Origin: a plasmid
Direction: 5' to 3' (one strand)
Length of the DNA stretch: 64,000 nt
Sequence record: NZ_CP029448.1
Shown: one piece after another, positions 16,135 to 59,692 of the stretch
Layout: every line of letters begins with the position of its first letter
How positions within the stretch are numbered: position 1 is the stretch's first letter
Made by a program: the position numbers and the translations under genes
Notes under the pieces: model-generated
Database searches by the model: none
The model's input: only the letters and a program-made list of their open reading frames with translations
Told to the model about the DNA's origin: nothing

Positions 16135-16416
16135 TCAGTACAGGGCAATGACAGGTTTCTTGATGCCGCAGGCGTGAGCGTAGCGGGTCAGTGTGTCGAT
16201 GCTGGCTTTGGTGATGTTGTTTTCCAGGCGAGAAATAACCGGAGGTGTAACCCCCATGCGTTCAGCAACCTGCGCTTTTGTCAGGTTGTCATGCTTGCGC
16301 CATTCAGCAAGCAGCTCCCTGAGCTTTTCCTTACGTTCTTCTTCCTGCCATGCAGCGCGATATTCATCGTCCTGCATCCACTCGTTATGCAGTTCTTTAT
16401 GGCTTACCAGTTTCAT
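16135..16416 (-). CDS. XRE-family HTH antitoxin (HigA-like), the second gene of a toxin-antitoxin operon.
   Basis: HTH in LTKAQVAERMGVTPPVISRLENN. It overlaps the upstream toxin gene by 20 nt. Confidence 0.7.
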   Translation of the reverse strand: MKLVSHKELHNEWMQDDEYRAAWQEEERKEKLRELLAEWRKHDNLTKAQVAERMGVTPPVISRLENNITKASIDTLTRYAHACGIKKPVIALY

Positions 16417-16726
16417 TAAGTACCTCCGCTAACCGCTTTTTGGCGAGATCGATTTCTTTCGCTGGCGTTTTCTGTGACTTCTTGATGAAAACACGGAGCA
16501 TGATGATGGTATTGCCTTTGTGGTATACCCAGATTCCCCTGGCTATGTCCGTCCCCATCGTGCGGATCTCAAAAAGTCCATCGCCCAGGGGCTTCGTGTC
16601 CGGCTCCCGCAGTAATCGGGCGTCATACTCCAGTTTGCCGATGAGACGGTCAAACTTCACCCTGATTTTTACGGGTAATGCTGTGGCTTCTTCCCTGGCT
16701 TCCGGGTGATAAACAACGCTAAACAT
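16397..16726 (-). CDS. RelE/ParE-superfamily toxin (HigB-like), with the toxin gene first.
   Basis: 109 aa from the ATG at 16726. Basic small protein, with the toxin-upstream and HTH-antitoxin-downstream organisation typical of higBA. Confidence 0.65.
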   Translation of the reverse strand: MFSVVYHPEAREEATALPVKIRVKFDRLIGKLEYDARLLREPDTKPLGDGLFEIRTMGTDIARGIWVYHKGNTIIMLRVFIKKSQKTPAKEIDLAKKRLAEVLNETGKP

Positions 16727-16756
16727 GTGACCTCCCATTTCTATTAATATTAACCT

Positions 16757-16803
16757 ATAGGCTAATTTCAGACAAGGTAGAATTAACCTATAAGCTAATT
16801 TTG
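16757..16803. promoter_or_regulatory. Two direct repeats of TTAACCTATA(G/A)GCTAATTT within 30 nt of the toxin start codon. They are a putative operator for toxin-antitoxin autoregulation.
   Basis: Repeats at 16757..16775 and 16785..16803, seen directly. Confidence 0.4.
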
Positions 16804-16804
16804 T

Positions 16805-17300
16805 TGGCAGTTATCGTGGCTACCCGGTCACTACCCTGTTAGCGTGAGTTTTCGTTCCACTGAGGAACGGGGATTTATGCGCGTTAGCGCATGTAAGGCG
16901 GCAGGATGAAATGACAGGTAGCACCGAGGGTTAGCCGCCGATACCAGTGAGGGATCGAAAGGGATCGCCTATCCATCCCTTCACCCTGCAAAGCCATATT
17001 CCGCTAAAAGCGGCTCAGAGGCTTTTGTGCGCGGTCGGAGTGGTCACAACAAGGCGAAGCCGCAGTTGGGGCGTATCTCCGCGTTAGCGGGTCGTAAGAG
17101 CCGCTTACGAGCGTGTAAGCTAATTCTTCAGCGATATTTGCTGACGTATCCGGCGTGGCCGGATTTGTCCAATCCCTCGATGGCTAACAGCTCGCCTGTT
17201 AGCCATCGAGGGATTCCGTTCTGAATGCCCCGCGCTTTAGCGTGGGGAGCTACTTTTGAGGCGCTCGCGCCGATGCTGTTCGGTTATCCACTTTTTAAAG
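16805..17300 (+). repeat. Copy A of an unexplained conserved non-coding element. Its core at 17020..17110 begins GTGCGCGGTCGGAGTGGTC... A diverged reverse-orientation copy lies at ~36550..37000.
   Basis: About 85% identity over the 95-bp core to the reverse complement of 36593..36690, with weaker similarity extending ~200 bp upstream. Several internal hairpins. Only non-credible ORFs overlap it. Confidence 0.3.
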
Positions 17301-17480
17301 GGGATAACAGTAATGTCTTTTATTTTTTGGTTTATCTTTTAATACGTAAGTAATTAAAAGATAAACCAAAAGAGTATTTGCGCCATCTCGTTTGCACTTC
17401 ATTATCACTTACCCACAAGCTATACAGCAGTTGTGGTGGGTCTACGCCGGAACCGCCGAAAAATCCGTCATTCCTGTAGG

Positions 17481-17589: not shown

Positions 17590-17988
17590 TCAGGCAAAGG
17601 TTAGGGAGTAGTATTCCTGTTTGCGCTGGCGAGCCACTTCACGCTTCGCTTTCATCCTGGCTAACCCGGCAGCGGCCTTACGCGTCCAGTTCTCAACCTT
17701 GATAGCGATTAACCGGACATCCCCGGAGGATATGATTTCTTCCGGGTTGGCCTTAAGCAGCCTGGCGCGTTCCCGGTAAACCTGTTTTAGCGGGATGCCG
17801 AGAATGGCGAAGAAATCCTCTGTAACCTCAATGTGCTTGCAGGCGCAACGGGCGTCATAAGGGTTGAAAGGGGCTTTTTCCGAGATGATGGCATTAAGCC
17901 AGGAGAGGCGATCACATCCCCGGCTGGCACGAGAAATCGACTTGTGACCCGCATCACTGCGCGTCGCCAGCCCGGCGCGTTCGGCCAA
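17590..17988 (-). CDS. Hypothetical protein (132 aa) lying between the degenerate inverted repeat (17481) and the intact inverted repeat (18024).
   Basis: ORF only; no recognisable domains. Its coding status is uncertain. Confidence 0.2.
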   Translation of the reverse strand: MAERAGLATRSDAGHKSISRASRGCDRLSWLNAIISEKAPFNPYDARCACKHIEVTEDFFAILGIPLKQVYRERARLLKANPEEIISSGDVRLIAIKVENWTRKAAAGLARMKAKREVARQRKQEYYSLTFA

Positions 17989-18023
17989 CGTTTCAAGGTT
18001 ATGTATGGTTTGCCAGTCTCTTA

Positions 18024-21000
18024 GGGGTCAGTTTGGATATAGAGAATTATTGTACGGCAAGCCTGTTTTTTGAACAGGCTTGCCTATAGCAATAGGGTGT
18101 ACCCTTATGCGATACCATTTTTGTTAAAAATTCCGCATCAAATAATTTATGAGGGAAACTATATGGCAAGGAGGCAGATTCTTTCTCTGTCGGAAAGAGA
18201 ATCATTACTGGCATTGCCAGATGATGAGTTAACGCTGACCCGAATGGCCTATTTCAGTGAGCATGATCTGGCACTTATCAGTGCTCACCGTAAACCTGCC
18301 AGCCGTTTTGGTTTTGCCGTCCTTCTTTGCTACCTGAAAAATGTCGGCTTTGCTCCGGATAAAAAAATCCCACCCTCTGATGCGCTGCTGAAGCATATCG
18401 CCAGCAGGCTAAAGCTTACCGGGGATCTCTGGCCTGCTTACCTTTCCGGCAGGGATACGACCCGGCGTGAGCATTTAACCGAACTGTACCGCTATCTTGG
18501 CGTAAAGGCGTTCACCGGCAAAATACAGCAGGACGGTATTACGCACCTGTTGTCGATGGCGACGCGCACCGATAAAGGTATTCTCCTGGCCGAAGAGTTA
18601 CTGGTCTGGCTCCGGCAGAACAACGTGATAATTCCCGCGATTGATGTCGTGGAGCGGACCTGTGCGGAGGCCATGGCTGGCGGAGATAAAATCGTATTTC
18701 AGACCCTGAATGCCCCGTTAACTCCGGCGCACCGGGATGCCCTGGATCGTTTACTTGAGTCATCAGATAATCAGCCTTCCAGGCTGACATGGCTTCTGCA
18801 ACCGCCGGGTAAAATCAATGGTAAGAACGTACTGCAACATCTTGATCGGCTCAGCAGCATTGAATCGCTGGCATTACCTGAAGGTATAGATCGTACCATT
18901 CACCAGAACCGGTTGCTGAAACTGGCGCGGGAAGGCCGAAAGATGAGTAGCCGGGATTTGACCCGATTTTCAGCAGCCCGCCGTCATGCGATCCTGGTCT
19001 GCGTGCTGGAAGAAGCCAGAGCCACACTGACAGACGAAGTGATTGAGCTGCATGAACGAATGCTGAACAGCCTTTTCAACAAAGCCAAAAGAACACAGGC
19101 TGAGCGCCTTCAGCAGACCGGAAAGCTGATCCAGTCCAAACTGAGGCAGTACATCGATGTTGGTCAGGCGCTGTCTGATGCCCGCGACTCCGGTGGCGAT
19201 CCATGGCTCGCAATAGAAAACATACTCCCGTGGCCTGAATTTGTCGCCAGTCTGGAGGAAACACGCCATCTCGCCAGAAAAAATAATTTTGACCCGCTGC
19301 ATATTATTACTGAGAAATACAGCACATTACGGAAATATGCCCCGCGCATGTTGTCCGCTTTACAGTTAGTCGCAACCCCGGCAGCACAACCTCTGGCTGA
19401 TGCGCTGGTTGTGATCAAGGATATGTACCGGAAGCAGTCACGTAAAGTTCCGGCGACTGCGCCGCTTGAGTTTGTCCCTGAAAGCTGGCGCAAGGTGGTG
19501 ATTACACCTGCGGGTATTGACCGGCAGTATTATGAATTTTGTGCGCTCAGCGAGCTTAAGGGAGCGTTGCGCTCCGGGGACATCTGGGTTAAAGGCTCAC
19601 GCCGCTACAAAAATTTTGATGATTACCTCATTCCCGAAAAGGACTTTGACAAACTCACACCGGCGCTGCCACTGCCCGTATCTGCTGATTATCATGAGTA
19701 CATTGCCAGCCGTATGACTCTGCTTCAGTCCAGACTTGAAGAGGTCAATGCCATGGCTGCCCTTGGTGAACTGCCCGATGTGGAAATATCCGACAAGGGC
19801 GTAAAAGTCTCTCCGCTGGATAACTGCGTTCCGGCACAGGTTTCACCGCTGGCAGAACTGGTTTACAGCATGCTACCGCGACCTAAAATCACGGAAATTC
19901 TCGACGAGGTAAACTGCTGGACGACGTTTACCCGTCATTTTTCGCATATAAAAAATGACATTACCCGTCCCGATACCCGCCAGCTCCTCACCACCATTCT
20001 TGCGGATGGCATCAATCTTGGCCTGACCAAAATGGCAGAAGCCTGCCCCGGGAGCACCAAATCATCACTCGAAGATATTCAGGCATGGTATACCCGCGAC
20101 GAAACCTATTCAGCCGCGCTTGCTGAGCTGGTAAATGCGCAGGGAAAAAGACCACTGGCGGCATTCTGGGGAGACGGAACAACGTCATCATCAGATGGAC
20201 AGAATTTCAGAACAGGCAGCTCAGGCCGCTACGCAGGGCAGGTTAACCCGAAATATGGGCAAGAACCTGGACGTCAGTTTTATACCCATATTTCGGATCA
20301 ATACAGCCCGTTTTACACCTGCATAATAAGTCGGGTCAGGGATTCAACCCATGTTCTCGATGGTTTGCTGTATCACGAAAGCGACCTGGAAATCAGGGAG
20401 CATTACACCGATACAGCTGGTTTCACCGATCATGTCTTTGCCCTGATGCATCTGCTAGGCTTTGCGTTCTGTCCACGAATCAGGGATCTCCACGACAAAA
20501 AGCTGTTTATCAAAGGGAAAGCAGACCAATACCCGGCGCTTCAGTCACTGATATCAACAACCAGCCTGAATCTGAAAGAGATCGAAATTCACTGGCGTGA
20601 AGTGCTGCGCCTGGCAACCTCGATAAAGCAGGGAACCGTGACGGCATCCCTGATGCTTAAAAAGCTTGCCAGCTACCCCAAGCAAAACGGACTTGCCAAA
20701 GCACTGAGGGAAATTGGCCGTATTGAACGAACGCTGTTTATGCTCGACTGGTTCCGCGATCCGGCACTTCGTCGGCGGGTACAGGCGGGACTGAATAAAG
20801 GAGAAGCCCGTAACGCGCTGGCGCGCGCGGTATTCCTGCACCGTCTGGGTGAAATCAGGGATCGTAAACCGGAAAATCAGAGCTACCGCGCCAGCGGACT
20901 GACGCTGCTGACGGCAGCTATCTCGCTGTGGAATACCATCTATATGGAAAGAGCGGTCGATACCCTGAAGCGTAAAGGGATGAAGATCAACGAGCGACTG

Positions 21001-21173
21001 CTGTCGCATTTGTCCCCGCTAGGCTGGGAACACATCAATCTTACAGGCGATTATATCTGGAAAAGCAACCGGATACCGGCTTCCGGTAAGTTTCGTCGGC
21101 TGCGGCCAGCTAAAGTAGGAAGGTCAAAAAACGACCTTAACGTACAATAATTTTCGATATCCAAATTGACCCC
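18024..21173 (+). mobile_element. Unnamed Tn3-family IS-like element (3150 bp) made of a 38/39-bp inverted repeat, tnpA and a second inverted repeat, with no resolvase or passenger genes. It is inserted inside an F-type trbB gene. The flanking 5-mers do not match.
   Basis: Inverted repeats at 18024..18060 and 21135..21173. A single 996-aa Tn3-family transposase. The downstream flank encodes the trbB 3' part. Confidence 0.8.
18163..21150 (+). CDS. tnpA: Tn3-family (DDE) transposase, 996 aa from the ATG at 18163 with a GAGGGA ribosome-binding site. The ORF track starts earlier, at 18070.
   Basis: N-terminus [25 protein letters not shown] is typical of the Tn3 family. Full-length similarity to the Tn21-type TnpA at 51269..54235. 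The stop codon lies inside the right inverted repeat. Confidence 0.9.
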   Translation: MARRQILSLSERESLLALPDDELTLTRMAYFSEHDLALISAHRKPASRFGFAVLLCYLKNVGFAPDKKIPPSDALLKHIASRLKLTGDLWPAYLSGRDTTRREHLTELYRYLGVKAFTGKIQQDGITHLLSMATRTDKGILLAEELLVWLRQNNVIIPAIDVVERTCAEAMAGGDKIVFQTLNAPLTPAHRDALDRLLESSDNQPSRLTWLLQPPGKINGKNVLQHLDRLSSIESLALPEGIDRTIHQNRLLKLAREGRKMSSRDLTRFSAARRHAILVCVLEEARATLTDEVIELHERMLNSLFNKAKRTQAERLQQTGKLIQSKLRQYIDVGQALSDARDSGGDPWLAIENILPWPEFVASLEETRHLARKNNFDPLHIITEKYSTLRKYAPRMLSALQLVATPAAQPLADALVVIKDMYRKQSRKVPATAPLEFVPESWRKVVITPAGIDRQYYEFCALSELKGALRSGDIWVKGSRRYKNFDDYLIPEKDFDKLTPALPLPVSADYHEYIASRMTLLQSRLEEVNAMAALGELPDVEISDKGVKVSPLDNCVPAQVSPLAELVYSMLPRPKITEILDEVNCWTTFTRHFSHIKNDITRPDTRQLLTTILADGINLGLTKMAEACPGSTKSSLEDIQAWYTRDETYSAALAELVNAQGKRPLAAFWGDGTTSSSDGQNFRTGSSGRYAGQVNPKYGQEPGRQFYTHISDQYSPFYTCIISRVRDSTHVLDGLLYHESDLEIREHYTDTAGFTDHVFALMHLLGFAFCPRIRDLHDKKLFIKGKADQYPALQSLISTTSLNLKEIEIHWREVLRLATSIKQGTVTASLMLKKLASYPKQNGLAKALREIGRIERTLFMLDWFRDPALRRRVQAGLNKGEARNALARAVFLHRLGEIRDRKPENQSYRASGLTLLTAAISLWNTIYMERAVDTLKRKGMKINERLLSHLSPLGWEHINLTGDYIWKSNRIPASGKFRRLRPAKVGRSKNDLNVQ

Positions 21174-32777: not shown

Positions 32778-33950
32778 ATGGAGAGCATTAATAATCAAGT
32801 GCAGTCGGTACGCCAGTTGCTGGCCATTCCCCAACTGGCCATCCCAAGCTATCAGCGACCTTACCGCTGGGGCTCCAAGAATATCTCGGATCTCTTTACC
32901 GATTTGGCAACCCATCAGGACAAGAGCGCCTACCGGCTGGGCTCGGTGGTGTTTCATCAGCACACCGATAGTGAGCAGGGCGAGATGCTTGATATCGTCG
33001 ATGGTCAGCAACGCACCCTGACCCTGATGTTGACCGTCAAGGCGCTGATCGAGGTGCTGGATAACGAAAATCGCAGTGGCAAAGAGAAGAGTATCCGGTT
33101 TCAACGTCAGGATCTGCGTGAGCAATTGCAGGTCTTGCGTGGACCTATCGATGCGTTTATGCAGCGCCAGCGCTTCCCCAGCCGGGATTCGGAGTTCAAC
33201 CTCAGACGCAACTATCTGGAGTTGCGTCGGCTGGTGGCCCGCCCTGAGTTTGACGAGCAGCAAATTGACTTTCTGCTCAACCGCTGTCAGGTGGTCTGCT
33301 TTGTGCTGCAGGATATCTCGGAGGCGTTCCAGTTCTTCGATTCGCAAAATGCCCGGGGGCGCGATCTGGCTCCTCACGATCTGCTCAAGGCATTTCACCT
33401 GCGCGAGTTTGCCGGTCATGAGGCCAATCTCAAGGCCGAGGCGGTCGCCCATTGGGAGCGCCTGCCAAGCGACGAGCTGGCCAATCTGTTCGCCCTCTAT
33501 CTCTATCGGGTACGCCAGTGGGCCGAGGGCAAGTCGGCCCGCTACTTTGGCAAGGGGGAGGTGGATCTCTTCAAGGGGGTCAACCTAGATCGGGTAGGGC
33601 ATTATCCTTACGTGGAGTCGCTGCGCATCGCCCACCACTTTGTCGATGAGTACAACAGCCAGTACCAGCGCAAGATTGACGGCCAGTACATGACGTTTCC
33701 CTTTCATCTCGACCAGATGATCATCAATGGTCGGCGCTTTTTCGAGATGGCCGAGTACTACCAGACGCGGGTGGCCGCCATCGTGGCCGAGGAGTCTGAT
33801 TCCGGCAAGGCGCAATCTGCCACCCTGCTCGGCGAAACGCTGACACCGATGGCCAGCAAGGTGCTATCGACCCTGGGCAGTTACGAGCGACGCCACCGCA
33901 CCGGGGATCGTTATGTGCGGGCCATGTTCGACTGCGCCCTGATCTTCTAG
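32778..33950 (+). CDS. DUF262 (ParB/Srx-like nucleotidase superfamily) protein of 390 aa, with a QRxYxW motif near the N-terminus and a DGQQR motif. It is a solitary gene in a ~60% GC segment.
   Basis: IPSYQRPYRWG and DIVDGQQRTLTL motifs. There is no DUF1524/HNH partner domain. The stop codon abuts the Tn3-type inverted repeat at 33951. Confidence 0.6.
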   Translation: MESINNQVQSVRQLLAIPQLAIPSYQRPYRWGSKNISDLFTDLATHQDKSAYRLGSVVFHQHTDSEQGEMLDIVDGQQRTLTLMLTVKALIEVLDNENRSGKEKSIRFQRQDLREQLQVLRGPIDAFMQRQRFPSRDSEFNLRRNYLELRRLVARPEFDEQQIDFLLNRCQVVCFVLQDISEAFQFFDSQNARGRDLAPHDLLKAFHLREFAGHEANLKAEAVAHWERLPSDELANLFALYLYRVRQWAEGKSARYFGKGEVDLFKGVNLDRVGHYPYVESLRIAHHFVDEYNSQYQRKIDGQYMTFPFHLDQMIINGRRFFEMAEYYQTRVAAIVAEESDSGKAQSATLLGETLTPMASKVLSTLGSYERRHRTGDRYVRAMFDCALIF

Positions 33951-34040
33951 GGGTCCGCTTGGAAAACGGAAATTTTCCTACGTTAAGCGTTTTGAGCTTA
34001 ACGAGTGATTTCGTTCCATTGAGCGCGAACCCCTGACCGT
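33951..34040. mobile_element. 90-bp miniature element made of two different Tn3-family-type terminal inverted repeats placed inner-end to inner-end. It is either a TIME-like element or a deletion relic.
   Basis: GGGGTCCGCTTGGAAAACGGAAATTTTCCTACGTTAAGCG (33951..33990). CTTAACGAGTGATTTCGTTCCATTGAGCGCGAACCCC (34004..34040), the reverse complement of a Tn3-like inverted repeat. Confidence 0.5.
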
Positions 34041-34518
34041 AAGGGATGTACGGAACGATCTGACTGTCCGTTAACAGTTTTGCTTACTTTCGTACATGTT
34101 ATTGGCATGGTGTACGCAATCGTTCGGTTTCGGACACAGAAACGCTGTAGCCCCGCGAACCGAGTGATATCCAATAGCCGATTGGTTAAAAAGTAGTCTT
34201 AGCGTAGGTTATTTTCCCTTTTCCAAGCGGACCCCACTTACGTCCATGCTAAAGCGCCTGAACCACCCGTCGCTCGTATCTTACCTCTTAAGTCTTGCCC
34301 CTGAAGGTACTCACTTTTAGTTCAGGATGGGCTACTCTCCATCTCTCTTACAAGAGGACATGGGCATCTCATTTAGTTGAAATTTGTACGCCAATACAAA
34401 TGACAATCTTAGAAAGGATCTCTTGCAAATTGAAAGTAAGTTATTGATTTGCAGGATCTGAGAGTTCTGTAGTATCCTCCGTTCCGAAGACATTTCTGAG
34501 GTGTCAGGAGAGCGATAA

Positions 34519-34797
34519 ATGTCACGTCCAGCAGATAAAACAACTTCCTCTGCGAATGCAAAACGTGCATACCGGAAAGGTAAGCCAATGTCTGCCAGTG
34601 AGAGACAGCTTGCCGCGATTGCGCGGAAACGCGAAACGCATAAAGAAGTTAAGGTTTTTGTTAAAAACCCACTAAAGGACGTGATGATAGCGGTTTGTGA
34701 AGAAGAAGGTCTGACACAAGCCCAGTTTATCGAGAGGCTCCTTGAGCGAGAGCTTACAGAACGCGGTCTTTTAGATGTAAAGACTTCACATTCTTGA
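34519..34797 (+). CDS. repA2: IncFII RepA2 (CopB) transcriptional repressor of repA1.
   Basis: MSRPADKTTSSANAKRAYRKGKPMSASERQLAAIARKRETHKEVKVFVKNPLKD... matches R100-type CopB. Confidence 0.85.
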   Translation: MSRPADKTTSSANAKRAYRKGKPMSASERQLAAIARKRETHKEVKVFVKNPLKDVMIAVCEEEGLTQAQFIERLLERELTERGLLDVKTSHS

Positions 34798-34809: not shown

Positions 34810-34930
34810 TGAGTGCTAGATTGTTGATGGTCTGAATAATTTTGGGTGTGCCACGCCGTAAGGTGGCAGGGAACTGGTTCTGATGAGGTATCTACCCGGG
34901 ACCAGAAAGCAAAAACCCCGATAATCTTCT
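34810..34930 (-). ncRNA. copA: Putative CopA antisense RNA region of the IncFII replicon.
   Basis: Located between repA2 and the tap leader, as in R100, with stem-loop potential. It was not aligned to a reference, so the coordinates are approximate. Confidence 0.3.
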
Positions 34931-35012
34931 TCAATCTTGGCGGAAGGAAAAGATTAACGGGGCCTTCATAAACTGCATAGAACGTGTTGCTCTATGCAGG
35001 GAGTATATGTAC

Positions 35013-35940: not shown

Positions 35941-36250
35941 CATTCCTTCTTTAAAAAATCCGGCCGGCGCCGGAGGCTTTCGCACGCCTGTTGGCCGGCT
36001 ACTACGTATTATCTTATCTTCAGGCCTGCATTCCTCACCATAATTCCGGTCTTCCTGGCGTCAACGTGGCCTTAAATGTTATCGCCGGCGTCACTTCTGA
36101 CGGCCGATTTCTGTTATCCACATATAACTGCAAGGGAGTATTTCATTAGGCTACAACCGTGATACGCACAAAGCACATGCCGTCGGACTTTCAAGGCGCG
36201 TGGTTCCTTTTAAACACCAGCTCTGTACCTCTTTTAAAGATCCTTTAATA
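35941..36250 (+). other. Putative oriR (the origin downstream of repA1 in IncFII replicons).
   Basis: Position only, by analogy with R100. It was not verified by sequence. Confidence 0.3.
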
Positions 36251-36549
36251 AATCCTGTAAACACATAACCTGTTCATCGCCTGCCCTGTGGACAGGCTGC
36301 GGAGAATGCCCGCCCTTGCAGCGACCTGACGGTCGCGCCGGTTCGGCAACACCAGAGAGAGCTCCCATCGCTTCGCGACGGGCCCCGACCGGAGAACCAA
36401 ATTAGTTACAGCATTCATAAGGAAGTTCATCATAAAACCGGCGCCGGTTTGCCAGCCAGGAGCCCCTCCCCACCACTGAAAAGCGCCGCCGCCCCCGGCC
36501 GAAGGCCGGGGAACACCATCGCTTTTAATGATGGGTGTTGTAACTACTC

Positions 36550-37000
36550 TTCTTCATCGCTGTAGGTGGAGCTGTGGTCAGTTGTTTAGTACACGCTCGT
36601 AAGCGGTCCTGCGGCCCGCTAACGCGGAGATACGCCCCGACTGCGGCTGTCGCCTTGTCGGGACCACTCCGACCGCGTACAGAGGCGTCTGTGATGTTTT
36701 AAGCGGGTATGGCTTATCAGGGCGGGGGAAGGGATTGGCAGAACCTGTCAAAACAGCAGCCGGCTGCGCCGGGTAACGGCGCCATTTACCCGCGGTACTC
36801 CATTCAACTTCAGCTGGCGCCTCCATGCCGCTGACGCGGCATCCGGAAGTTTCCCATGCTGTAGACTTTAACGTCTGCTTTGTGACAGGAGCGGACACAA
36901 CATGGCTGCGTTCCTTGCATCCCGTCCGCAAACCTACGACGCCTACAGTGGAGTAAGGTGCCATCCCGTTTCCCACACTTGCACCTTACGTCAAGGTCCC
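36550..37000 (-). repeat. Copy B (inverted, diverged) of the unexplained conserved non-coding element. The core at 36593..36690 is ~85% identical to the reverse complement of 17020..17110.
   Basis: Direct comparison within the window. The overlapping ORF 36578..36976 is not credible. Confidence 0.3.
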
Positions 37001-37307: not shown

Positions 37308-37592
37308 ATGACAGTCCACGTCGTTAAAAAAACCGGCGATTTCGTTCTTCGCTTACGCGAGAAAGATACGCCGAACGCCATCAGCGGAATCACGCTGGAC
37401 GCGCTGATGACGGTAACAGGGATGACTAAAACTGAGTTGGCCCACTTGGCTCTTCGTAAGCTGGCTGATGCCTATCTGCCGCATTACGAAAAAGATGATG
37501 GTCCACTCACCACTGCTCAAATCCAGGCTATTCGTGAAGCCTCAACGGCAAGCGGTAAATCGGAGGAGCGATTTAATAAAACTCTTTTATAA
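37308..37592 (+). CDS. Putative antitoxin (94 aa), possibly with an AbrB/MazE-like swapped-hairpin N-terminus.
   Basis: VHVVKKTGDFVLRLRE. The gene sits directly upstream of the toxin with a 9-nt gap. Confidence 0.4.
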   Translation: MTVHVVKKTGDFVLRLREKDTPNAISGITLDALMTVTGMTKTELAHLALRKLADAYLPHYEKDDGPLTTAQIQAIREASTASGKSEERFNKTLL

Positions 37593-37601
37593 GGAGAGAA
37601 G

Positions 37602-38030
37602 ATGGCAACTACCACTAAACCTTTTCCACAACTGCCTGAGCCAGGTGATTTTGTATGGTGTCGCTTTCCACGCCTGCCAGGATTCCCTGATACACCAGGG
37701 CCAAAGCTCCGTCCGGCATTAGTCATCGCGGTGTCGGATGCAGACCACGAAGTGATGGTTGTCTATGGGACGAGCCAGAAGACCGATAAAATCTATCCGA
37801 CTGAGTTTTTACTCAAAAAGACAGATGCCGGTTTCGCTGTATCTGGACTGGCTCATGATACGAAGTTCGATATGGCAGTTCGCATTGAGCTTCCCTACGA
37901 TAGTGACTGGTTTGATCTTGCTCCTATTAAAAATGGGGTGGCTACGATGTCGCCGGTAATGGGTACACTGCACACAACTTACATGGCTGCTGTGAAGCAG
38001 GCCAATGCAAAAGTGAGTCAAGCTGCATAG
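37602..38030 (+). CDS. Putative MazF/PemK-like toxin (142 aa).
   Basis: PEPGDFVWCRFP...GPKLRPALVIAVSD...VMVVYGTSQ resembles the PemK/MazF N-terminal pattern. A terminator hairpin follows. Confidence 0.45.
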   Translation: MATTTKPFPQLPEPGDFVWCRFPRLPGFPDTPGPKLRPALVIAVSDADHEVMVVYGTSQKTDKIYPTEFLLKKTDAGFAVSGLAHDTKFDMAVRIELPYDSDWFDLAPIKNGVATMSPVMGTLHTTYMAAVKQANAKVSQAA

Positions 38031-39197: not shown

Positions 39198-42095
39198 ATG
39201 TCACGACGCCATATTTTCACCGAACGGCAGCGAGCAGCGCTGTTCGATCTGCCCACGGACGAACTGTCGCTACTGAAGTTCTACACGCTGGGCGATGATG
39301 ACCTGGAAAACATTAGGCAGCGCCGCAGACCGGAAAACAGGATTGGCTTTGCCCTGCAACTTTGTGCCTTACGATATCCGGGCCGTGCACTGGCTCCTGG
39401 TGAGATGATCCCGCGTGAAATCCTTTCCTTCGTCGGTGCTCAGCTTGGAGTTCCGGCTGATGCGCTTCTCACTTATGCCACACGGCGCCAAACCCGTCAG
39501 CAGCACATGGACACGCTGCGCGAAATTTACGGCTACAAGACCTTCACGGGCCGTGGTGCCCGTGATCTGCGGGAGTGGACTTTCGGCCAGGCCGAAGATG
39601 CCAGATCAAACGAGGATCTTGCTCATCGTTTTATTGTGCGGTGTCGGGAAACTTCCACCATTCTGCCCGCAGTATCGACAATCGAGCGCTTGTGCGCGGA
39701 TGCTCTGGTCGCCGCTGAGCGGCGGATTGAAACGCGGATTGTGGAAAATTTAACAGCGGATGTTCGCGATCACCTGGACAAACTTCTGAGTGAAATGCTC
39801 GCCGGCAATATCAGTCGTTTCATCTGGCTTCGCAACTTCGAGGTTGGTAACAACTCGGCTGCTGCTAACCGTTTGCTCGACAGGCTCGAATTTCTGCGTA
39901 CCCTGAATATCAATCATAGTGCTTTGGCCAGCATACCTGCCCATCGCATTGCCCGGCTGCGTCGGCAGGGTGAACGCTACTTCACCGACGGTTTGCGTGA
40001 CATCACTTCGGACCGCCGCTGGGCGATCCTTGCCGTCTGTGTTGTGGAGTGGGAAGCGGCGATTGCTGATGCCATAGTCGAAACCCATGACAGGATCGTA
40101 GGAAAAACCTGGCGGGAAGCGAAGCGCCAGCATGACGAAACAATTTCCGGCTCTAAAGCCACACTCGCGGATACGATCCGTACCTTCACCGCGCTGGGAG
40201 CTTCGTTGCTTGAGGCCCGCAGTGACGGAACCCCGCTGGAGATGGCTGTCGCCAGTTCGGTTGCATGGGACCGGCTCGCTCAACTGGTAGCGACAGGGAC
40301 TCAACTCAGCAACACGCTAGCCGATGAGCCTCTTGCATATGTCGGGCAGGGATACCATCGCTTTCGTCGTTATGCGCCCCGCATGTTGCGCTGTCTGAAG
40401 CTCGAAGCCGCGCCGGTCGCCGGACCATTGGTAGCAGCAGCTTTGTCGATCGGAGAGATGAAAGGTGTTGCATCGCCAGAAAGGCGTTTCCTGCGGCCCA
40501 GCTCCAAATGGAACCGTCATTTACGAGCTCAGGAAAAAGGAGATACCCGTCTTTGGGAAGTGGCGGTACTCTTTCACCTCCGGGATGCTTTTCGTTCCGG
40601 AGATGTCTGGCTCGCTCATTCGCGCCGCTATGGTGACCTCAAGCAGGTACTGGTGCCGATGATCGCGGCGCAGGAAAATGCAAAACTGGCCGTGCCTTCC
40701 AACCCACAGGATTGGCTGGCAGACAGAAAGGCGCGACTCACGATCGCTCTTAAGCGGCTGGCCCGGGCTGCCCGTAACGGCACTATTCCGCACGGTAGCA
40801 TAGAAGATGGAACGTTGCGGATCGACAGGTTGACAGCAGACGTGCCGGATGGTGCCGAGGCACTCATACTGGATCTGTATCGCCGAATGCCGTCCGTTCG
40901 GATTACCGACATGCTGCTTGAAGTTGATGCAGCCCTTGGTTTCACAGATGCGTTTACCCATCTGAGAACCGGGGCTCCATGTCGCGACCGGATCGGTCTG
41001 CTCAACGTCCTGCTCGCTGAAGGGCTCAATCTGGGCCTGCGTAAGATGGCGGAAGCTACAAACACGCATGATTACTGGCAGCTCTCACGCCTTGCCCGCT
41101 GGCATGTTGAAAGCGAAGCCATGAACCAGGCATTGGCAATTGTGGTGGCCGCGCAGGGTAAACTGCCGATGTCACGCGTCTGGGGGATGGGCACGTCAGC
41201 ATCGAGCGATGGTCAGTTTTTCCCGACAGCGCGGCATGGCGAAGCCATGAACATGGTCAATGCCAAATATGGTTCTGTTCCCGGCCTCAAAGCGTATACT
41301 CACGTAAGCGACCAGTTCGCGCCATTCGCTTGTCAGTCGATCCCGGCGACCGTGAGCGAGGCACCGTATATTCTCGATGGACTACTGATGAACGAGGTCG
41401 GTCGCCATGTTCGCGAACAGTATGCCGATACAGCAGGATTCACCGACCATTTGTTCGGAGCCAGTAGCCTGCTCGGCTACAATCTCGTTCTGCGAATCAG
41501 GGATCTGCCATCGAAGCGGTTGTACGTATTTAATCCCGATACGACCCCCAGGGAGTTACGCAAGTTGGTAGGTGGAAAAGCCCGGGAGGATCTTATCGTT
41601 GCGAACTGGCCTGATATTTTCCGTTGTGCCGCGACGATGACCGCTGGCAAAATCAGGCCCAGCCAACTCCTGCGCAAGCTCGCTTCTTACCCACGACAAA
41701 ACAACCTTGCAGTTGCGCTTCGTGAAGTTGGTCGTATTGAACGGACCCTTTTCATTATTGAGTGGATCCTGGATACGGACATGCAGCGGCGTGCTCAGAT
41801 CGGTCTTAACAAGGGAGAGGCCCACCATGCGCTCAAAAATGCGCTCCGTATCGGGAGGCAGGGGGAAATTCGCGATCGCACGACAGAGGGGCAGCACTAC
41901 CGAATCGCTGGGCTCAATTTATTGACTGCGGTGATCATTTACTGGAATACCGTCCATCTTGGTCATGCCGTCACGGAGCGGCGGAACGAAGGGTTGGATG
42001 TTCCCCCTGAATTTCTTCCCCACATATCCCCATTGGGCTGGGCGCACATTCTACTGACTGGCGAATATCTTTGGCCCAAGGAACCGAAAGCTTAG
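39198..42095 (+). CDS. tnpA: Tn3-family transposase (965 aa) of the Tn5403-like element.
   Basis: N-terminus MSRRHIFTERQRAALFDLPTDELSL. A DDE core. The stop lies in the right inverted repeat. Confidence 0.9.
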   Translation: MSRRHIFTERQRAALFDLPTDELSLLKFYTLGDDDLENIRQRRRPENRIGFALQLCALRYPGRALAPGEMIPREILSFVGAQLGVPADALLTYATRRQTRQQHMDTLREIYGYKTFTGRGARDLREWTFGQAEDARSNEDLAHRFIVRCRETSTILPAVSTIERLCADALVAAERRIETRIVENLTADVRDHLDKLLSEMLAGNISRFIWLRNFEVGNNSAAANRLLDRLEFLRTLNINHSALASIPAHRIARLRRQGERYFTDGLRDITSDRRWAILAVCVVEWEAAIADAIVETHDRIVGKTWREAKRQHDETISGSKATLADTIRTFTALGASLLEARSDGTPLEMAVASSVAWDRLAQLVATGTQLSNTLADEPLAYVGQGYHRFRRYAPRMLRCLKLEAAPVAGPLVAAALSIGEMKGVASPERRFLRPSSKWNRHLRAQEKGDTRLWEVAVLFHLRDAFRSGDVWLAHSRRYGDLKQVLVPMIAAQENAKLAVPSNPQDWLADRKARLTIALKRLARAARNGTIPHGSIEDGTLRIDRLTADVPDGAEALILDLYRRMPSVRITDMLLEVDAALGFTDAFTHLRTGAPCRDRIGLLNVLLAEGLNLGLRKMAEATNTHDYWQLSRLARWHVESEAMNQALAIVVAAQGKLPMSRVWGMGTSASSDGQFFPTARHGEAMNMVNAKYGSVPGLKAYTHVSDQFAPFACQSIPATVSEAPYILDGLLMNEVGRHVREQYADTAGFTDHLFGASSLLGYNLVLRIRDLPSKRLYVFNPDTTPRELRKLVGGKAREDLIVANWPDIFRCAATMTAGKIRPSQLLRKLASYPRQNNLAVALREVGRIERTLFIIEWILDTDMQRRAQIGLNKGEAHHALKNALRIGRQGEIRDRTTEGQHYRIAGLNLLTAVIIYWNTVHLGHAVTERRNEGLDVPPEFLPHISPLGWAHILLTGEYLWPKEPKA

Positions 42096-58571: not shown

Positions 58572-58835
58572 ATGAAGAAGCGTTTTTCCGACGAACAGAT
58601 CATCAGTATCCTCCGCGAGGCTGAAGCCGGGGTTTCTGCCCGTGAGCTCTGCCGTAAGCACGCCATTTCCGACGCCACCTTTTACACCTGGCGTAAGAAG
58701 TATGGCGGTATGGAGGTGCCCGAGGTTAAGCGCCTGAAGTCGCTTGAGGAAGAGAACGCCAGGCTCAAGAAGCTGCTTGCCGAAGCCATGCTGGATAAGG
58801 AGGCGCTTCAGGTGGCTCTGGGGCGAAAGTACTGA
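58572..58835 (+). CDS. IS3-family orfA (HTH).
   Basis: As above. Confidence 0.8.
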
Positions 58836-58858
58836 CGACAGACCAGAAGCGGGAAGCC

Positions 58859-59692
58859 GTGATGTTGATGTGTGATGCGACCGGTCTGTCGCAACGTCGT
58901 GCCTGCAGGCTTACAGGTTTGTCCCTGTCGACCTGCCGTTATGATGCTCAGCGTCCGGCTGCTGATGCACATTTATCAGGGCGTATTACTGAGCTGGCGC
59001 TTGAACGCAGACGTTTTGGTTATCGGCGTATCTGGCAGTTGCTGCGTAGGGAGGGCCTTCACGTCAATCACAAGCGGGTATACCGTATTTACCACCTTAA
59101 TGGACTGAGCGTAAAACGCAGACGACGCCGTAAAGGGCTGGCGACCGAACGGTTTCCGCTTCTTCGCCCGGATGCGCCGAACCTTACATGGTCGATGGAT
59201 TTCGTTATGGACGCACTGGCCAACGGTCGCAGGATCAAGTGCCTGACCTGTGTGGATGATTTCACGAAGGAGTGTCTGACGATCACCGCTGCTTTCGGTA
59301 TTTCAGGCGTTCAGGTCACGCGTATTCTGGACAGCATCGCGTTGTTTCGGGGCTATCCGGCGACAATAAGAACCGATCAGGGCCCGGAATTTACCTGCCG
59401 CGCGCTCGATCAATGGGCCTTTGAGCATGGTGTGGAACTACGGCTTATCCAGCCAGGTAAGCCAACGCAGAACGGATTTATTGAGAGTTTTAACGGACGC
59501 TTTCGCGATGAGTGTCTGAACGAACACTGGTTCAGCGATATCGTTCACGCCAGGAAAACCATTAACGACTGGAGGCAGGATTATAACGAGTGTCGTCCAC
59601 ATTCGGCACTGAATTATCTGACGCCATCAGAGTTTGCAGCACGGTGGCGAAATGGAAAATGTGAAGGTAAACAAACCGACATTACTAACTGA
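58859..59692 (+). CDS. IS3-family orfB (DDE catalytic domain). In vivo it is probably expressed as an OrfAB fusion through a -1 frameshift.
   Basis: As above. Confidence 0.8.

Follow-up and report, generated by a model that had tools for sequence, protein, structure and literature searches.

Two inverted copies of a conserved structured element on a plasmid probably represent the G site of IncFII-type replicons

INTRODUCTION

Why does a plasmid carry the same short, hairpin-rich and apparently noncoding element twice, in opposite orientations? A sequence-only reading of a 64-kb stretch of plasmid DNA (the window; positions are counted from its first letter) had flagged such an element as unexplained, and proposed a small mobile element, a retroelement relic or a regulatory RNA as candidate identities. 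In our analysis, the element is a constant component of the IncFII replicon. It lies in what was historically called the repA4 region, where R1/R100 carry the G site, so that "unexplained" does not hold. We put the probability at roughly 0.85 that both copies are the primase-dependent priming signal, or "G site," of an IncFII-type theta replicon, located in the repA4 region. The element is thus an already known one, a long-characterised cis site of IncFII replication.

In plasmid R1, leading-strand synthesis starts at the G site, where DnaG primase alone primes on SSB-coated DNA. The G site is a G4-type single-strand initiation signal, priming as at the complementary-strand origin of phage G4, and the element of R1/R100 that is homologous to the one described here acts as single-stranded DNA. 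Plasmid G sites have three blocks in common but resemble the phage sites only around the primer start. Escherichia coli primase prefers the triplet CTG. The repA4 region of NR1/R100 contains the leading-strand start together with inverted ter sequences. In R1/R100 the G site lies ~400 bp downstream of oriR, and its active strand is the one opposite repA. The IncFII sources behind this background are Masai & Arai 1989; Bernander, Krabbe & Nordström 1992; Tanaka et al. 1994; Nomura et al. 1991; and Jiang et al. 1993.

RESULTS

Extent of the repeat

A profile search of the window finds exactly two copies of the core of the element. Copy A is 91 nt long (17027-17117, plus strand), and its partner, copy B, occupies 36590-36680 and is read on the minus strand. 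Global alignment of the two cores gives 83 identical columns out of 93 (89%), and BLASTN of positions 16780-17320 against the window returns a single inverted match, pairing 16967-17117 with 36739-36590 (82% over 152 bp, E 6e-36). The inverted repeat of about 85% identity claimed by the sequence-only reading is therefore real and far above chance; the repeat itself was correctly recognized, and only its core, placed at 17020-17110, had been set ~7 nt too far to the left. Weaker similarity had also been proposed to continue for another 200 bp. On the 5' side this is borne out over ~60 to 130 nt, with ~60 nt of detectable similarity beyond the core and patchy similarity down to ~16880 in the MAFFT alignment, but on the 3' side neither pairwise nor MAFFT alignment finds any similarity between copies A and B.

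Two replicons in one window

Each copy belongs to its own IncFII-family replicon (Table 1). Copy B lies behind an intact one, in the order repA, DnaA box, AT-rich stretch, two inverted Ter-like sites and core, with the 3' end of the core 476 bp past the DnaA box. Farther downstream, a putative toxin-antitoxin pair is found at 37308-38030 (plus strand), composed of a 94-aa open reading frame (ORF) without a Pfam match and a PemK/MazF-like toxin; its location past copy B parallels that of pemIK past the R100 replicon and that of the HigBA-like pair beside copy A.

Table 1. Positions of the main features of the two replicons within the 64-kb window
Feature	Position	Strand	Remarks
Putative G-site core, copy A	17027..17117	+	Three near-invariant blocks CGGTCGGAGTGGTC; GGGGCGTATCTCCGCGTTAGCGGG; CCGCTTACGAGCGTGTA; plus is the predicted active single strand
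Distal part of relic, 5' of core on the predicted active strand	16863..17026	+	Conserved hairpins, e.g., GGCGGC...GCCGCC
Spacer between core and oriR, copy A	17118..17282	.	Palindrome where other replicons carry Ter
Perfect 20+20 palindrome with 5-nt loop	17171-17215	.	In the spacer of copy A; also conserved in L044
Inverted pair of DnaA-box-like sequences, relic oriR	17283..17308	.	GTTATCCAC / GGGGATAAC
AT-rich perfect 19-nt inverted repeat (19+19), relic oriR	17325..17371	.	Conserved in L044
Truncated repA of the second IncFII-family replicon, 132 aa	17590..17988	-	Pfam IncFII_repA profile positions 98-201 of 275
Tn3-family transposon end GGGGTCAGTTTGG...	18024..18061	+	End coordinate approximate; typical ~38-bp inverted repeat assumed
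Putative G-site core, copy B	36590..36680	-	Minus is the predicted active strand and predicted leading-strand template for forks leaving oriR
Distal conserved hairpin region, copy B	36681..36830	-	GGCGCC...GGCGCC and CCGGCGCAGCCGG; covaries among homologues
Ter-like site GTGTTGTAACTA	36535..36546	+	44 bp off the core's 3' end; IncFII loci keep it at +590 to +605 past repA
Second, inverted Ter-like site ATGCTGTAACTA	36403..36414	-	Kept at +460 to +470 in IncFII loci
DnaA box TTATCCACA of oriR	36114..36122	+	AT-rich stretch farther downstream, about 36200-36262
Intact IncFII repA, 285 aa	35083..35940	+	Pfam
CopA antisense RNA	34907..34995	-	Rfam RF00042
CopB/RepA2 repressor gene	34519-34797	+	Pfam
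PemK/MazF-like toxin, 142 aa	37602-38030	+	Pfam

Copy A sits in what is left of a second replicon, a 1.16-kb relic that has lost the first ~89 codons of repA along with the whole control region. Both losses are due to a Tn3-family insertion: the truncated gene meets the transposon end at 18023/18024, and tnpA (about 1000 aa, 18070-21150) reads inward from that end. Intact relatives of the truncated RepA are 233 aa long, and a sequence identical to the protein of 17590-17988 is labelled "RepA family replication protein" in RefSeq. One intact relative, L044 (typed IncFII), matches the window DNA without a break between 18023 and 16863, at 93.6%. The AT-rich inverted repeat of the relic oriR is its probable unwinding region. 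No Ter-like site was found in the spacer of copy A or in L044, its closest intact relative, and the core of copy A lies only ~170 to 190 bp from the DnaA-like boxes, against the usual ~400 to 480 bp; its placement agrees with that in L044.

The surroundings described by the sequence-only reading were accurate as far as they went. Copy B does lie just downstream of an IncFII oriR, and the HigBA-like pair beside copy A is real by Pfam, with a Gp49/HigB-like protein at 16397-16738 and a helix-turn-helix (HTH) protein at 16135-16416; the truncated repA and the oriR next to copy A had been missed. A further observation concerns the order of the region. Positions 3627-3881 of L044, which follow its replicon, are 100% identical to window positions 33950-34204, just upstream of the replicon of copy B. 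This identity suggests that the segment 16863-33949 is inverted relative to an ancestral order with both replicons in tandem.

In both replicons the core is on the strand opposite to repA, and its position relative to repA likewise matches; the two copies are mutually inverted for this reason. Two copies are present in the window because it holds one live replicon and one transposon-truncated relic. Neither copy is an internal part of a known insertion sequence or transposon, a possibility that had been raised; they are internal parts of two replicons. The RepA proteins of these replicons are only 25% identical to each other, and BLAST detects no mutual similarity in the oriR DNA flanking copies A and B. 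An identity of ~89% between the cores, despite 25% RepA identity and unlike oriRs, fits a site that is constrained by a host protein.

The core is a constant part of IncFII replicons

How general is this arrangement? One genome per species was scanned for relatives of the copy B RepA, yielding 39 loci. In 32 of the IncFII loci, the sequence continues for at least 800 bp past repA, and the core was counted over these. It is present in 31 of the 32, which come from different species, always on the opposite strand and at +610 to +750 past the repA stop codon. Ahead of the core, the DnaA box falls at +176 to +183, and one Ter-like site is found at +460 to +470 (minus strand) and another at +590 to +605 (plus strand); about 30 of the 32 loci have the Ter-like pair at these offsets. 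Over all 36 loci compared, the position and orientation of the core relative to repA are constant.

The one exception is L014 (a Salmonella enterica subsp. arizonae contig), where the core alone is cleanly deleted, at ~+620, with Ter and the distal flank kept. Since this deletion is natural and clean, the core is dispensable in at least this one replicon. In L041 and L042, whose RepA is only 60% identical, neither Ter nor core was found. The core is also present, at +443 to +625, in L044 and L045, the intact relatives of the replicon of copy A.

In R100, the core lies at 90266-90357 of the record, opposite repA and 419 bp past the DnaA box. A profile made from both window copies plus R100 matches R100 at L003 40253-40365 with E 3e-35, next to E values of 7.5e-37 and 5.7e-36 for the window copies, and pairwise core identity between the window copies and R100 is 78 to 81%. 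The same relative arrangement is found in an IncI2 plasmid, where the core is annotated as "replication protein RepA4." A BLAST search of a plasmid database, which the sequence-only reading had proposed as a check, places the core in more than 5000 PLSDB records at 80% identity or higher; in nearly all of the PLSDB matches listed, the annotation at the core is "None."

Conserved blocks and a strand-specific fold

Alignment of 36 distinct copies reveals three invariant or near-invariant blocks, TCGGAGTGGTC, GGGGCGTATCTCCGCGTTAGCGGG and CCGCTTACG(A/G)GCGTG, and the first two are separated by a hairpin that varies and covaries. In Tanaka et al. (1994), the conserved blocks of G sites are reportedly A, B and C, set apart by a variable domain.

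The consensus fold is an outer stem around two hairpin domains, with 28 pairs and 98.9% of the cells paired. Compensatory changes occur in 7 of the 28 predicted pairs, a count reached in none of 500 shuffles and compared with 0 to 4 in slid controls; at columns 31 and 51, for example, 30 sequences have G-C and 6 have A-T. The earlier remark that some substitutions pair up is upheld, and the proposed covariation check comes out clearly, beyond all 500 shuffles. Folding differs between the strands. Folded as single-stranded DNA, the GTGCGCGG... strand is more stable than its shuffles, with z scores of -2.2 for copy A, -2.4 for copy B and -3.0 for R100. Its complement is no better than shuffles (z -0.55 for A, -0.9 for B and -0.6 for R100). 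This difference is due to conserved G-T wobble pairs on the GTGCGCGG... strand. Together, strand-asymmetric folding and covariation point to a single-strand function and not to a duplex protein-binding site.

Does the element encode a protein? The local ORFs, 17027-17224 (plus strand, 65 aa) and 36578-36976 (minus strand, 132 aa), have no Pfam match. Indels of 1 nt within the core argue against a protein-coding role, including that of the historical repA4 ORF, since among homologues they break any frame. The earlier judgment that neither copy has a believable ORF is upheld, as is the general description of the element as conserved, structured and noncoding.

The preferred primase triplet is not a fixed neighbor of the element. 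CTG occurs within 12 nt 3' of the core in only 6 of the 36 sequences and is not conserved. R100 has a CTG that begins 3 nt past the GCGTG of block 3, as part of a TACTG immediately 3' of the last block. In copy B, CTA stands at the position of this CTG (36589-36587) and a CTG is found 11 nt past the GCGTG of block 3 (36581-36579); the nearest CTG in copy A is 26 nt away, and CAG and CTG triplets lie there at 17129-17143. A CAG some 14 to 16 nt downstream is far commoner among the copies.

A second conserved stretch beyond the core

Another conserved stretch is located ~60 to 200 nt past the core in the direction of replication, at 16880-17010 (plus strand) and 36700-36830 (minus strand). By eye, its hairpins covary among homologues (GGCGCC/GGCGCC, GGTGCC/GGCACC, GGCGGC/GCCGCC; CCGGC/GCCGG versus CCCGC/GCGGG). 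RNAalifold returned no consensus structure for the 5'-distal flank, where the alignment is heterogeneous. This stretch may belong to the complete priming signal or act as a single-strand site of its own.

A more speculative version, which we consider rather unlikely, is that the distal stretch is a second, undescribed single-strand signal, such as a back-up primosome site, and that orphan G sites are kept for priming after conjugative entry. In R100, the active G-site strand is the transferred strand, as judged by gene orientation. If orphan G sites such as copy A were kept for complementary-strand priming, two inverted copies would give one site per strand.

DISCUSSION

Weighing the alternatives

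We would identify both copies as G sites from their positional and sequence homology, combined with the position and the "blocks A, B, C" of the R1/R100 G site. What is observed is homology to R100 at the matching position, a fixed placement and orientation with respect to repA, folding that favors one strand, and covariation. Could a conserved cis element of the repA4 region with these properties have a main role other than priming, either in a termination or stability module with Ter or as the binding site of another host or plasmid protein? Several observations would suit such a role: the core is 44 bp from a conserved Ter-like site, the CTG beside it is not conserved, and a natural deletion of the core exists in L014. 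The last two points also weigh against the G-site reading, as do the short oriR spacing of copy A and the lack of resemblance to phage origins. In a TraDIS screen of an R100-like RepFII replicon, stable maintenance needed the repA4 region, which contains ter sites, and repA4 has been described as a stability and ter region (PMC4398462); this screen counts in favor of the G-site reading as well. Yet copy A and L044, its closest intact relative, keep the core without Ter; because they retain it after Ter loss, the core is conserved independently of Ter. The variant in which a protein binds the duplex is disfavored by the strand-asymmetric folding and the covariation, which favor a single-strand function. 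We regard the termination or stability role as improbable.

Compensatory changes would also be expected of a transcribed structured RNA, whether a small RNA or a cis-regulatory RNA located where the repA transcript ends, since the predicted fold would form as RNA too, and transcription of repA could read through the element on the opposite strand. The strand that folds well is, however, antisense to such read-through, and in copy A the element is intact though the upstream gene is dead. Copy A has no promoter-like site in its vicinity, and copy B has none in a suitable place; in scans for promoters and terminators, nothing that would speak for a transcription unit exceeded the level expected from shuffles. 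No Rfam family matched the element, so the search proposed for a known RNA family yields nothing relevant, at gathering scores over the whole window or at E<=1 over 16700-17450. At gathering scores, the only Rfam matches in the whole window are CopA and an IS1222-type ribosomal frameshift element (58802-58919, plus strand, RF00383, 157 bits), the latter marking an IS3-family insertion sequence; at E<=1, positions 16700-17450 give only spurious miRNA-type hairpin matches on palindromes. The regulatory RNA considered earlier is thus very improbable, with no promoter-like site flanking copy A and a homologue in R1/R100 that acts as single-stranded DNA.

If the element works as a single strand, RNA polymerase might be what reads it, in the manner of the Frpo single-stranded DNA promoters of conjugative leading regions. 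Structured Frpo/ssi elements of this kind do exist on R100 and F (PMC7690428, PMC11541004). The site in question adjoins oriR and not the leading region, and no correctly oriented gene lies downstream of it; no -35/-10-like hexamers were found, and the core profile has no match in F 50001-99159, the 49-kb half that holds the leading region and the Frpo sites. The chance that the element is such a promoter seems extremely small. Smallest of all is the chance of a small nonautonomous mobile element, a retroelement relic or a group II intron fragment inserted twice. In its favor are the two inverted copies in one window and the GTGCG at the start of the core; for a group II intron 5' end, this GTGCG is the only feature present, with no Rfam group II match and no reverse-transcriptase ORF. 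There is no Rfam intron or retron match even at E<=1 over 16700-17450, and neither terminal inverted repeats nor target duplications mark the limits of the similarity. In 36 of 36 loci the core keeps its place and orientation with respect to repA, and both window copies lie within diverged replicons of their own, with none at an unrelated site in the window. The intron, retroelement and mobile-element suggestions of the sequence-only reading are accordingly set aside.

Proposed role in the two replicons

How would a G site act in this setting? RepA together with DnaA would open oriR, and DnaB would be loaded. Unwinding away from repA would expose the strand complementary to the repA sense strand, which is predicted to fold into two hairpin domains inside an outer stem, accessible on SSB-coated DNA. 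DnaG primase would bind this fold directly and lay the leading-strand primer, with synthesis proceeding away from oriR. With the GTGCGCGG... strand as template, the primer would begin on the side facing oriR, at the element's 3' end, and would be extended away from oriR. Primase binding, primer start and the leading-strand role are all inferred here from the R1/R100 literature. The Ter-like site 44 bp before the core may face forks that arrive from the repA side, if its polarity is read correctly, and might stop the round-the-circle fork just short of the 5' end of the leading strand. Copy B would serve the live replicon. Copy A would be the surviving cis site of a dead one, exposed only passively, by passing forks or by conjugative transfer.

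The discovery value of this result is small, since the element is real and conserved but ordinary. Its use lies elsewhere. The G site is almost never annotated, and now and then it carries the wrong label of a "RepA4" protein. Since it acts as DNA, Rfam does not include it, and it therefore keeps being flagged as an unexplained conserved structure. With ~89% core identity at 25% initiator identity, the core is a handy marker for live and dead IncFII-family origins in mosaic resistance plasmids.

Comparison with known systems

Structured priming signals are found in several plasmid and phage systems. The Frpo/ssiE elements of F-like leading regions are likewise structured single-stranded DNA initiation signals of the same plasmid class, but it is RNA polymerase that recognises them, their stem presents -35/-10 hexamers, and their place is the leading region; no homology between them and the core was found. 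PriA-dependent sites, such as the phiX174-type n' sites and the ssi of ColE1, are also single-strand hairpin priming signals near plasmid origins. Such primosome sites need PriA, PriB, DnaT and DnaB-DnaC before primase acts.

The complementary-strand origin (oric) of phage G4 follows the same logic as that proposed here, with hairpins on SSB-coated single-stranded DNA, direct use of DnaG and a primer just 3' of the hairpins. It has CTACTG at the annotated primer start, and R100 shares TACTG there. The structures differ: G4 oric has three separate stem-loops (z -5.6), whereas in the element described here an outer stem surrounds two hairpin domains (z -2 to -3). A search of the core against 50,697 phage records (BLAST, distant mode, E<=1) gave no match. 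The term "G4-type" describes function only, since the sequence does not resemble phage G4-type origins.

Plasmid F (L046) has a degenerate, incomplete copy of the core at 40686-40765 (minus strand), near RepFIB. It shares the GTCCCGAC stem, the GGCCGTCAGGGCCGCTTACGAGC hairpin and the last block, but is without the central invariant block GGGGCGTATCTCCGCGTTAGCGGG and is not beside an IncFII repA.

The closest known counterpart is the IncFII G site of R1/R100. Copy A departs from R100 in belonging to another RepA subfamily (25% amino acid identity), in having no Ter and in its shorter oriR spacing, and the CTG that directly follows the core in R100 is missing from both window copies. The core is ~80% identical to positions 90266-90357 of the R100 record, the invariant blocks are alike, and R100 has the same order of repA, DnaA box, AT-rich stretch, Ter and core, with the core on the same strand relative to repA.
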